From the NCBI RefSeq assembly GCF_033153115.1, contig NW_026889750.1:14694001-14758000 (forward strand): a stretch of DNA of 64,000 nucleotides. Reading direction: 5' to 3'. This document shows, piece by piece, positions 41,930 through 43,796 of the stretch. Origin of the DNA: Saccostrea echinata. Lineage: Eukaryota. The notes below the pieces were generated by a model that saw only the letters and a program-made list of their open reading frames with translations, was not told where the DNA came from and did no database searches. Within the stretch, counting starts at the first letter, position 1; every line of letters starts with the position of its first letter. Both the position numbers and the translations under genes were made by a program.

Positions 41930-43796
41930 ATGGCTGAAGCATTCTTCACTTCATCGCCTTCAAAGACATTTGGAGATTTCGAGAAGGAGTGGTTAGATCT
42001 TGGAAAAGATTTTGATGTGGTGTTTGATTCGGGGTAAGTTCGTCTTCTTAAAATTTCATTTAAAAAATCAGATTTAAAACACCAATTTATAAGCATTTTT
42101 CTACATTACAAAGAACTGCGAACGATAGTTTTGTTCTCCCGCCTACCTCCAAGTCAGTTTGAAGAAGTTAATACATTTGAATGAATTTTCATATTATTTT
42201 AGATATTAATATGAATTTTCATAAAATATTACTTAGTTGGGAAAACAAAGAGAAATAACTCTATTTTTTTTTTCGAAGGGGTTTACAACTAAAATAGTGT
42301 ATTTAATCAATTACATTTTGTTTAATTAAATATGCGTAAACCATAAGAAAGAATATTTTGAAATATGCTTACGCGTTCAAGCCTGATTTCAATGGAAAAC
42401 GCCGTCTACCCCTATAAAAACAGTTGGGAATAAGAGTAATTAACTATTTATCACTGGTATCAAAATTATTAATCAATTACCATTAAACTCTTCTATTCAT
42501 TAACCGAAAATTTTATGGCCAAATCGCAATTAGTATTGAATTAAATGGGTGTAAAATGTAGGCGGGAATCCAGAGTTAGAGTACGTAGTTCTTTACATGT
42601 ATTCTTTTATTTCAAATTATTATAAATTTGCTTTATTTTCTTTTACCAAATGTCTTTAAATTTCTGTTTAACTAGGAATTCTCCCCAAGACCTCCAACTG
42701 ACTGACCCAAGATATGAAGAGCCAGTAAAAAAGGGGAAAAAGAGAAAACTGAGTGAGACAGAGGACTCAATCATTCTTACACAAAGGTAAATGTTACCTT
42801 TAAATATTCTCTCTCTCTCTCTCTCTCTCCCTCTCGTTAATTTGCTTTAATTGTTAGCTTAAACTGTTTTTTTTAAATTTGTATTTTTTTTTAAAAGGAA
42901 AATGGCAAAACAAAAGAGAGAAAACGGTTTCACACAACAGACAAATAAAGAACACCCACAGCTGATAACATTTAGGTATAGTTGTTTTCATAGGTTAAAT
43001 GTATTACAAATGTACATGTCGCCCTTTGATACGAAAAAATAAAGAATGATACAATAAATAGAACCAAAAAGAAGAAGAAAATATTGAATAATTATCTTGA
43101 AAACAGATTCACTTTATAGTTTAAAGTCTTAAAATTTAAAGGTAGACCTCTGTTAACCATTAAAGACTTAAACATTTTTTTTTTCACCATTTTAGTATGC
43201 TAGTTTAGATACTGTATGTTTTGTTCTTTAATTACAGGCAGGAAAACCCTGGTAAATATGAAGCCCTGGAAAAGAGAACTAGTACCAGGTCTACGTTCAC
43301 CCTGGGGTCGTTGACACCTAGATATACCTCAGCAGCATCAGGGTATAGCCCGACGTCACCAGGGTATAGCCCGGTGTCACCAGGGTATAGCCCAGCGTCA
43401 CCAGAGTATAGCCCGGCGTCACCAGGGTATAGCCCGGCGTTACCAAGGTATAGCCCAGTGTCACCAGGCCCAGCATCACCAGGGTGTAGACCAGCATCGC
43501 CAGGCCCAGCATCTCAAGCGTGTCAAGGATCACAAGGATTTGTCCCTGTAAAACAAGAACATTTCCTTCCGTCACCTGATCACACCTTGACTCCACTTCA
43601 GGCTCCATTTATGAATACCCTAGCGTCATCGGGGTATGCTCCGGTGACATACAGCTCTGCGTGTGAAGACTCCCAATATCCTCTAAAAGAGGAGTTGGGG
43701 GCGCTGTCCGAATTAATCGACTCTCTTCGAGTTGATCTACTTCAAAGTTCCATGCTTGTGAACTATGTTCAAGATTACATGAAAAAATGGAAGTAA
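41930..43796 (+). CDS. Predicted 4-exon nuclear protein with RNA Pol II CTD-like heptad repeats, 283 aa
   Basis: Exons 41930-42033, 42676-42786, 42898-42975, 43238-43796; GT-AG, phase 2; TATAAATA at ~41854; NLS-like KKGKKRKL; six YSP heptads. Confidence 0.78.

Follow-up and report, generated by a model that had tools for sequence, protein, structure and literature searches.

The window analysed here, a stretch of 64,000 nucleotides from the oyster Saccostrea echinata (contig NW_026889750.1), holds one Polinton inserted within another, and the inner element carries a four-exon gene whose last exon includes six heptads resembling the carboxy-terminal domain (CTD) borne by the RNA polymerase II (Pol II) subunit RPB1. 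The gene belongs to a family that is real and undescribed: judged from sequence, it is conserved among oyster Polintons, has exons that can be modelled, is under selection and yields a product predicted to be spliced. Our tentative reading, to which we give a probability of roughly 0.4, is that this is a selected resident gene of one oyster Polinton clade, encoding a nuclear and mostly disordered regulator that would raise the transcription of its own element. Such a regulator may best be understood as a hub of the E1A type with an optional, convergent CTD-like phospho-array. No account of a Polinton CTD-like protein or of this family was found in the literature searched; the supplements of PMC8502044 may list the gene under an Adintoc name. 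Few Polinton accessory genes have an assigned role, and the family, conserved across farmed oyster species, offers a concrete candidate for a regulator of Polinton genes in animal nuclei.

A gene family of oyster Polintons

The window gene (Table 1) contains three introns, each GT-AG and in phase 2, as the original prediction made from this DNA had proposed. Read exon by exon, the 852 coding nucleotides give 283 codons and a stop, with no internal stops, and exons 1 to 3 contribute 98 residues in total. The acidic and aromatic N-terminus and the basic KKGKKRKL motif, both noticed earlier, are likewise present. The ATG is preceded by TATAAA at -76 and, at -100, by a GC box; of the 5 clade copies examined, 4 retain the upstream TATAAA and only the window copy has the GC box. 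An in-frame ATG within intron 1, used as the start in RefSeq model P0001, is rejected as the main start because exon 1 and its donor are conserved.

Table 1. Positions of the gene, its motifs and the two Polintons within the window.
Feature	Position	Strand	Content	Basis
Exon 1	41930-42033	+	SPxK site 41954-41965; acidic helix FxDFxxxWxxL (FxxxWxxL 41978-42001)	
Exon 2	42676-42786	+	Basic motif KKGKKRKL, resembling a nuclear localization signal, 42728-42751, then acidic SETEDS	
Exon 3	42898-42975	+	Linker and beginning of conserved helix	
Exon 4	43238-43796	+	KYxxLEKR helix 43254-43277, variable Ser/Pro-rich region, C-terminal helix, stop	
CTD-like tandem heptads (n=6)	43344-43469	+	0 perfect YSPTSPS	
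C-terminal amphipathic helix	43680-43793	+	4-3 hydrophobic pattern; family signature	Alignment, AlphaFold2
Putative Pol II core promoter	41830-41859	+	GC box 41830-41835, TATAAA 41854-41859	Sequence
Candidate polyadenylation signal	43941-43946	+	AATAAA	Sequence
Inner Polinton, bearing the gene	23032-44502		184-nt terminal inverted repeats (TIRs), 99% complementary; AGTAGT/ACTACT ends; 6-bp target duplication CATTCC	
Inner-element PolB, two exons	30541-35246	-	GT-AG intron 32145-32299 (155 bases)	
Outer Polinton	7407-51727		TIRs 7407-7901 and 51230-51727; unsplit PolB, ATPase, IAP, integrase	

Searching the S. echinata genome with the C-terminal 43 residues yields 97 candidates, of which 68 match the C-terminal helix; once two near duplicates are removed, 66 distinct loci are left. 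Counts given below out of 61 refer to the window copy together with the 60 loci that were retrieved from among the 65 others. A profile search returns 71 representatives at E<=0.001, and the named members are all Ostreidae (Saccostrea echinata, S. cucullata, Magallana gigas, Crassostrea angulata, C. virginica and Ostrea edulis). The final exon of the RefSeq S. echinata model P0005 is identical in reading to locus L026. At NCBI, family members are named uncharacterized or RPB1-like; on XP_056003957.1 and XP_034334810.1 the RPB1-like label is a mis-annotation of this oyster Polinton family, which the present finding corrects. The loci are clustered, 61 of the 66 lying on four contigs (G000 C5, C33, C36 and C6), which suggests a Polinton-dense chromosome region. 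Tandem duplication of the C-terminal helix is seen in two copies, L032 and L054 (G000:C6 near 10703800).

The splice sites recur across the family. Exon 1 is recognised in 35 of the 61 loci and is followed by a donor-like GT in 28 of these. Of 34 loci, 30 have the exon-2 donor in phase 2 at the corresponding position and the remaining four read straight on; of 53 pattern rows, 36 have the exon-4 acceptor AG where the window gene has it (the misses are 12 spurious matches and 5 true homologues). RefSeq models P0001, P0005, P0007 and P0011 share the exon-3 junctions of the window gene, full-length RefSeq models use the same junctions as it does, and in locus L038 exons 1 to 3 are fused as one natural frame. 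Among the Logan proteins, P0064, P0077, P0078 and P0079 cross the exon 3-4 junction, and P0076 and P0080 end at it; those that cross it probably derive from spliced sequence, because other Logan calls run into introns. Homologues in six oyster species retain the splice sites together with signs of purifying selection, and the earlier proposal of a Polinton gene with modelled exons thus extends to a family.

The constant core of the protein consists of four short segments (SPxR-x-FxDFxxxWxxL, KRKL-x-E-x-EDS, KYxxLEKR and the terminal helix); the heptads are not part of it. Compared with the window, synonymous and non-synonymous differences (pS and pN) are 0.80 and 0.27 in the exon-1 segment (35 loci), 0.79 and 0.12 in the basic/acidic segment of exon 2 (31 loci) and 0.72 and 0.28 in the KYxxLEKR segment (38 loci), with pN biased low in all three as the loci were chosen by pattern. 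For the C-terminal helix (44 distinct rows from 51 of the 61 loci), pS is 0.90 and pN 0.29 over 791 distant pairs, and pN/pS is 0.86 in the 20 closest pairs. These values, which are comparisons of sequence, show purifying selection on the four short core segments. A decaying passenger without current function would account for the ratio in the closest pairs, and also for the stops or frameshifts present in many copies. Between lineages, however, pS is saturated and pN low, the splice phases are conserved and six species are involved; moreover, the window copy is intact and its element has a perfect target duplication. The between-lineage selection and the conserved splice phases refute the passenger explanation for the family as a whole, and it is highly implausible.

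AlphaFold2 predicts that the C-terminal end forms a single 35-residue helix (mean pLDDT 89), and its hydrophobic residues, as read from the family alignment, follow a 4-3 pattern. A complex prediction with four copies of this helix, run without an alignment, scores 0.08. A PDB sequence search with the family alignment gives one weak match only, to the Ana2 coiled coil (E 0.27), and Pfam gives merely weak coiled-coil matches to the same alignment, in at most 2 of 28 members. The predicted model of an array-less member (pTM 0.36) has no fold match at E<=0.001 in PDB or BFVD; the ESM Atlas search produces no usable match to the family, and of 6 pattern matches in IMG/VR none is confirmed. Because no DNA-binding domain was found in the protein family, targeting would go through proteins.

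The spacing FxxxWxxL, overlooked in the original prediction, is present in 29 of the 35 exon-1 loci and in all 10 full-length proteins, array-less ones included. It corresponds to the MDM2-binding triad of the p53 transactivation domain, which is retained in mussel p53 (PMC10303687, PMC5543598). Agreement with this triad at the 29 loci is partly circular: Leu is its sole independent test because F and W belonged to the exon-1 search pattern. The main job of the protein might be to interfere with the p53-MDM2 axis or with p53 co-activators through this helix, the Ser/Pro region tuning the effect, and the occurrence of the triad in array-less lineages would fit such a role. A p53-family gene is present in the host, as is a SWIB exon (L098) that we take to be MDM2-like, and the inner element encodes a CARD protein and the outer one an inhibitor of apoptosis (IAP). 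Molluscs also retain both interaction domains (PMC5543598). Against this stand the circularity just described, the frequent occurrence of triads of this kind in acidic activation helices, and the weak binding of mussel MDM2 to its p53 motif (15 uM, PMC10303687). As the principal function, this role appears quite improbable.

The heptad array and its variation

The window array reads YSPTSPG YSPVSPG YSPASPE YSPASPG YSPALPR YSPVSPG, that is, five exact YSPxSP units and one with Leu5. In a six-frame scan of the window, YSPxSP matches are confined to this array. Exon 4 matches PF05001 (RPB1 CTD) at E 1.2e-9, passing the cut-off, and has no other Pfam match, and the DNA of the array is a 21-bp tandem repeat; the six heptads had been correctly described from the outset. 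The gene and the RPB1 CTD have in common Tyr1-Ser2-Pro3-x-Ser5-Pro6 at a seven-residue period. In contrast to RPB1, the largest Pol II subunit, in which the polymerase domains are part of the same protein, the window gene has none, exon 4 yielding PF05001 only and the other three exons being short. The host RPB1 exon (L061) contains 39 YSPxSP motifs and 24 perfect heptads, as against six heptads in the window gene, where no unit is a perfect copy of the Pol II consensus YSPTSPS with its Thr4 and Ser7. The tandem arrangement of the Pol II CTD is seen in the window gene and, overall, in just 11 of the 61 loci. A blastn comparison of the array with host RPB1 gives no match, and its units are identical to the best host stretch at 12-15 of 21 bases. 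Recent capture of host RPB1 is rejected, the array DNA being unlike the host RPB1 exon; a capture in the distant past is conceivable. A second CTD-like array on a non-polymerase protein occurs in this genome: at L062:4073 onward (plus strand; G000:C60 near 2729100), about 30 units of the forms YRPTSPS, YKPTSPS and YSPTSPS open a host frame of 1309 codons that runs on into a helicase-like region, which we take to be ZNFX1-like. This host protein is likely antiviral.

Across the family, the region between KYxxLEKR and the terminal helix is variable. Y[ST]PxSP occurs 86 times, in 31 of the 61 loci, and never in antisense frames. Labelled by arrangement, 21 loci have single or spaced motifs, 11 have tandem ones and 29 have none, and the unit lengths are 7, 16-18 or 56 residues. 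Ten of 18 hand-picked lineage representatives carry a YSPxSP motif, each with a shuffle P<=0.021. Ser2 of the 86 motifs is encoded by AGY codons in 64 cases and by TCN codons in 19, and each of the four Pro codons is in use; the presence of both Ser codon families and all four Pro codons implies that the motif was either maintained at the protein level or gained on more than one occasion. Tandem heptads require three changes on the tree, at least two of them forced by supported branches, and are present also in Magallana and in Ostrea (a run of 10, P0107). The Ostrea member has YTPTSPQ-type units, resembling the host distal CTD. Position 7 is Asp or Glu in 39 of the 86 motifs, possibly standing in for phospho-Ser7; Cdk12 favours pSer7 substrates (PMC3973122). 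Taken together, the aligned motifs show the YSPxSP hexamer to be retained at the protein level across lineages. The original prediction had proposed heptad retention with synonymous divergence as a check; YSPxSP is indeed kept across lineages with synonymous divergence, but whole lineages are without the motif.

Several observations weigh against our reading. Eight of the 18 lineage representatives are without the motif, and in three of these the middle spans 9-10 residues; in whole lineages the array site is occupied by 9-13 residues that include no motif, and 13 of 58 database proteins, a redundant set, have a middle of at most 20 residues. The shuffle test is post hoc because the motif was defined from the window, and near-copies inflate all counts. 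Thr4 is found in 1 and Ser7 in 2 of the 86 motifs. Distinct synonymous and non-synonymous variants of the window-clade array stand at 10:31, as against 5.7:15.3 for the sites, giving no codon bias in a rough count of 37 distinct units that includes flanking ones. Repeats evolving without codon-position bias had been named beforehand as evidence against the original prediction, and within the tandem array this is what is found. The transcript-like (Logan) evidence derives from an array-less lineage, without heptads, and the direction of the effect, activation as opposed to repression, is read from the acidic helix alone. CTD mimicry, which had been put forward as the defining function of the gene, is not supported in that role, given the array-less lineages, the many single or widely spaced motifs, the want of any perfect YSPTSPS and the missing codon-position bias.

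Part of this evidence would be expected if YSPxSP were a generic proline-directed phospho-switch, or a degron, controlling the location or lifetime of the protein, the CTD likeness being incidental and the tandem heptads arising from 21-bp slippage. Loci with single or spaced motifs outnumber those with tandem ones, units of 16-18 and 56 residues also exist, Thr4 and Ser7 are nearly absent, and codon bias is not seen inside the array. However, Tyr1 and both prolines are retained in distant lineages, the seven-residue period turns up again in different regions of the tree and in three genera, and the likeness of the Ostrea units to the host distal CTD would have to be fortuitous. We consider this alternative somewhat unlikely.

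Improbable in our view is a PIE-1-like decoy, which would sequester P-TEFb or CTD readers and thereby dampen host immune or silencing transcription. In yeast, the minimal CTD unit comprises two Tyr at a spacing of seven residues together with three SP motifs (PMC6548728); the window array satisfies this rule four times, in overlapping units, and 16 of 58 database homologues do so at least once. PIE-1 and Pgc bind P-TEFb and block Ser2 phosphorylation (PMC2748068). On the other hand, the spliced genes of the element itself depend on Pol II, and the same purifying selection is found in array-less lineages. Furthermore, Ser2 and Ser5 are still phosphorylatable in the array; the PIE-1 motif has alanines at those sites.

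Two nested Polintons

The inner Polinton is a complete element inserted within the outer Polinton. Its TIRs, which are 99% complementary, the AGTAGT ends and the 6-bp target duplication show that it inserted recently and is intact. Its genes code for integrase, capsid, protease, ATPase, CARD-PC4 and PolB, and the family gene lies at its right end, about 520 bases inside the TIR and oriented away from PolB. The gene qualifies as a Polinton accessory gene, being found at a constant place in TIR-bounded elements with PolB, integrase, ATPase and capsid. In line with the earlier claim that the gene's own element is the one that needs splicing, the inner PolB bears an intron, and the outer PolB, the one gene of that element compared in this respect, is a single frame. 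In 5 of 7 sampled paralog neighbourhoods PolB is upstream of the family gene with the intron at the same place, and in the other two no PolB lies within 10 kb; this shows an intron-bearing Polinton clade. With the ATPase as linkage marker (150 of 447 ATPase candidates compared), a close-clade ATPase on the same strand lies no more than 25 kb upstream of at least 22 of the 66 family loci, and TIR-like DNA occurs near family loci in 15 of 54 stretches.

Several other genes were noted in the window. At the left end of the inner Polinton, a CARD is fused to two PC4-like domains (23874-24911, plus strand). A probable spliced membrane protein (36999-38650, minus strand) contains a Thr/Pro-rich exon-like unit four times, through a 249-bp tandem array, and the repeats are followed by a hydrophobic segment and then by a Ser/Pro-rich tail. 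Accessory genes of the outer element encode a Pro-rich RING protein with PPTP motifs (10243-11166, plus strand) and a BIR-RING IAP (46066-46710, minus strand); a further frame (11668-12282, minus strand), for which Pfam gives no match, is presumably macrodomain-like. Two related frames with common 3' ends run outward into both outer TIRs (7815-8630, minus strand, and 50933-51316, plus strand), and the left one has two zinc knuckles. The outer Polinton is flanked on both sides by a 434-bp satellite array.

Proposed function and comparison with known systems

In the regulator that we favour, the acidic FxxxWxxL helix would hold host co-activators or an MDM2-type pocket, the basic KRKL motif would drive nuclear import, and the C-terminal helix would mediate self-association or partner binding, multiplying the valency of the motifs. 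Where a lineage has them, the YSPxSP motifs may hold CTD kinases or readers. Proline-directed CTD kinases would phosphorylate Ser2 and Ser5, and engagement of the phospho-array would favour the element's own spliced genes. The array would then be a tunable add-on of 0 to about 10 heptads, produced by convergence and slippage rather than by recent RPB1 capture. A bolder version, which we regard as rather unlikely, combines an independently evolved tunable Pol II tail with two helices, one for p53-like activation and one for oligomerisation, into a portable artificial CTD. If this were true, CTD kinases and capping and splicing factors would be gathered on the intron-containing genes of the element, and the natural variants with 0 to 10 heptads would represent a dose series. 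Should the array work as a CTD, the Pol II tail would here be mimicked by a mobile element, a case of which no description was found in the literature searched. Each part of the proposal is testable because the motifs are separable and natural variants range from no heptad to about 10.

The Oncoid genes of Adintovirus/Polinton (Starrett et al., PMC8502044) are likewise small, motif-rich accessory genes upstream of PolB with a CK2-type acidic site, and the window gene has both the position and a site of this type (SETEDS in exon 2). Unlike Oncoids, the window family has predicted splicing, a CTD-like array and a terminal helix. Among the Oncoid motifs given in that paper, LxCxE is found in 0 of 35 exon-1 segments and 0 of 10 full-length proteins, paired CxxC in 0 of 10 full-length proteins, and the strict CR1-type pocket motif in 0 of 35 exon-1 segments, a looser hydrophobic-xx-hydrophobic-F-D/E/N form being present in 18 of the 35. 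Membership in the Oncoids is rejected, the family being without LxCxE, CxxC and the strict CR1 motif.

PIE-1 bears a CTD-like heptad. C. elegans PIE-1 and Drosophila Pgc are non-polymerase proteins that engage a CTD kinase (PMC2748068), as is proposed here. However, these are cellular germ-line repressors, whereas in the oyster family the serines are retained, the motif is present in multiple copies and the gene resides in a mobile element. Transactivation domain 1 of p53 (PMC10303687, PMC5543598) has the same hydrophobic triad, an acidic N-terminal helix and a nearby Ser/Thr site. In contrast to p53, the oyster family has no p53 DNA-binding domain, and the likeness is limited to one short motif, known from sequence. 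The adenovirus protein E1A is spliced, encoded near the genome end and transcribed from its own TATA promoter; it lacks a DNA-binding domain and acts as a disordered hub built of short motifs. The window gene resembles it in its place near the end of the element, its own TATA, its predicted splicing and its hub of motifs. No sequence or fold similarity to E1A was found, and the family is without a zinc finger and without an Rb-binding motif (the Rb-binding motifs of E1A being taken as quoted in PMC8502044). We propose, by analogy, that the oyster Polinton family works like these viral motif hubs.
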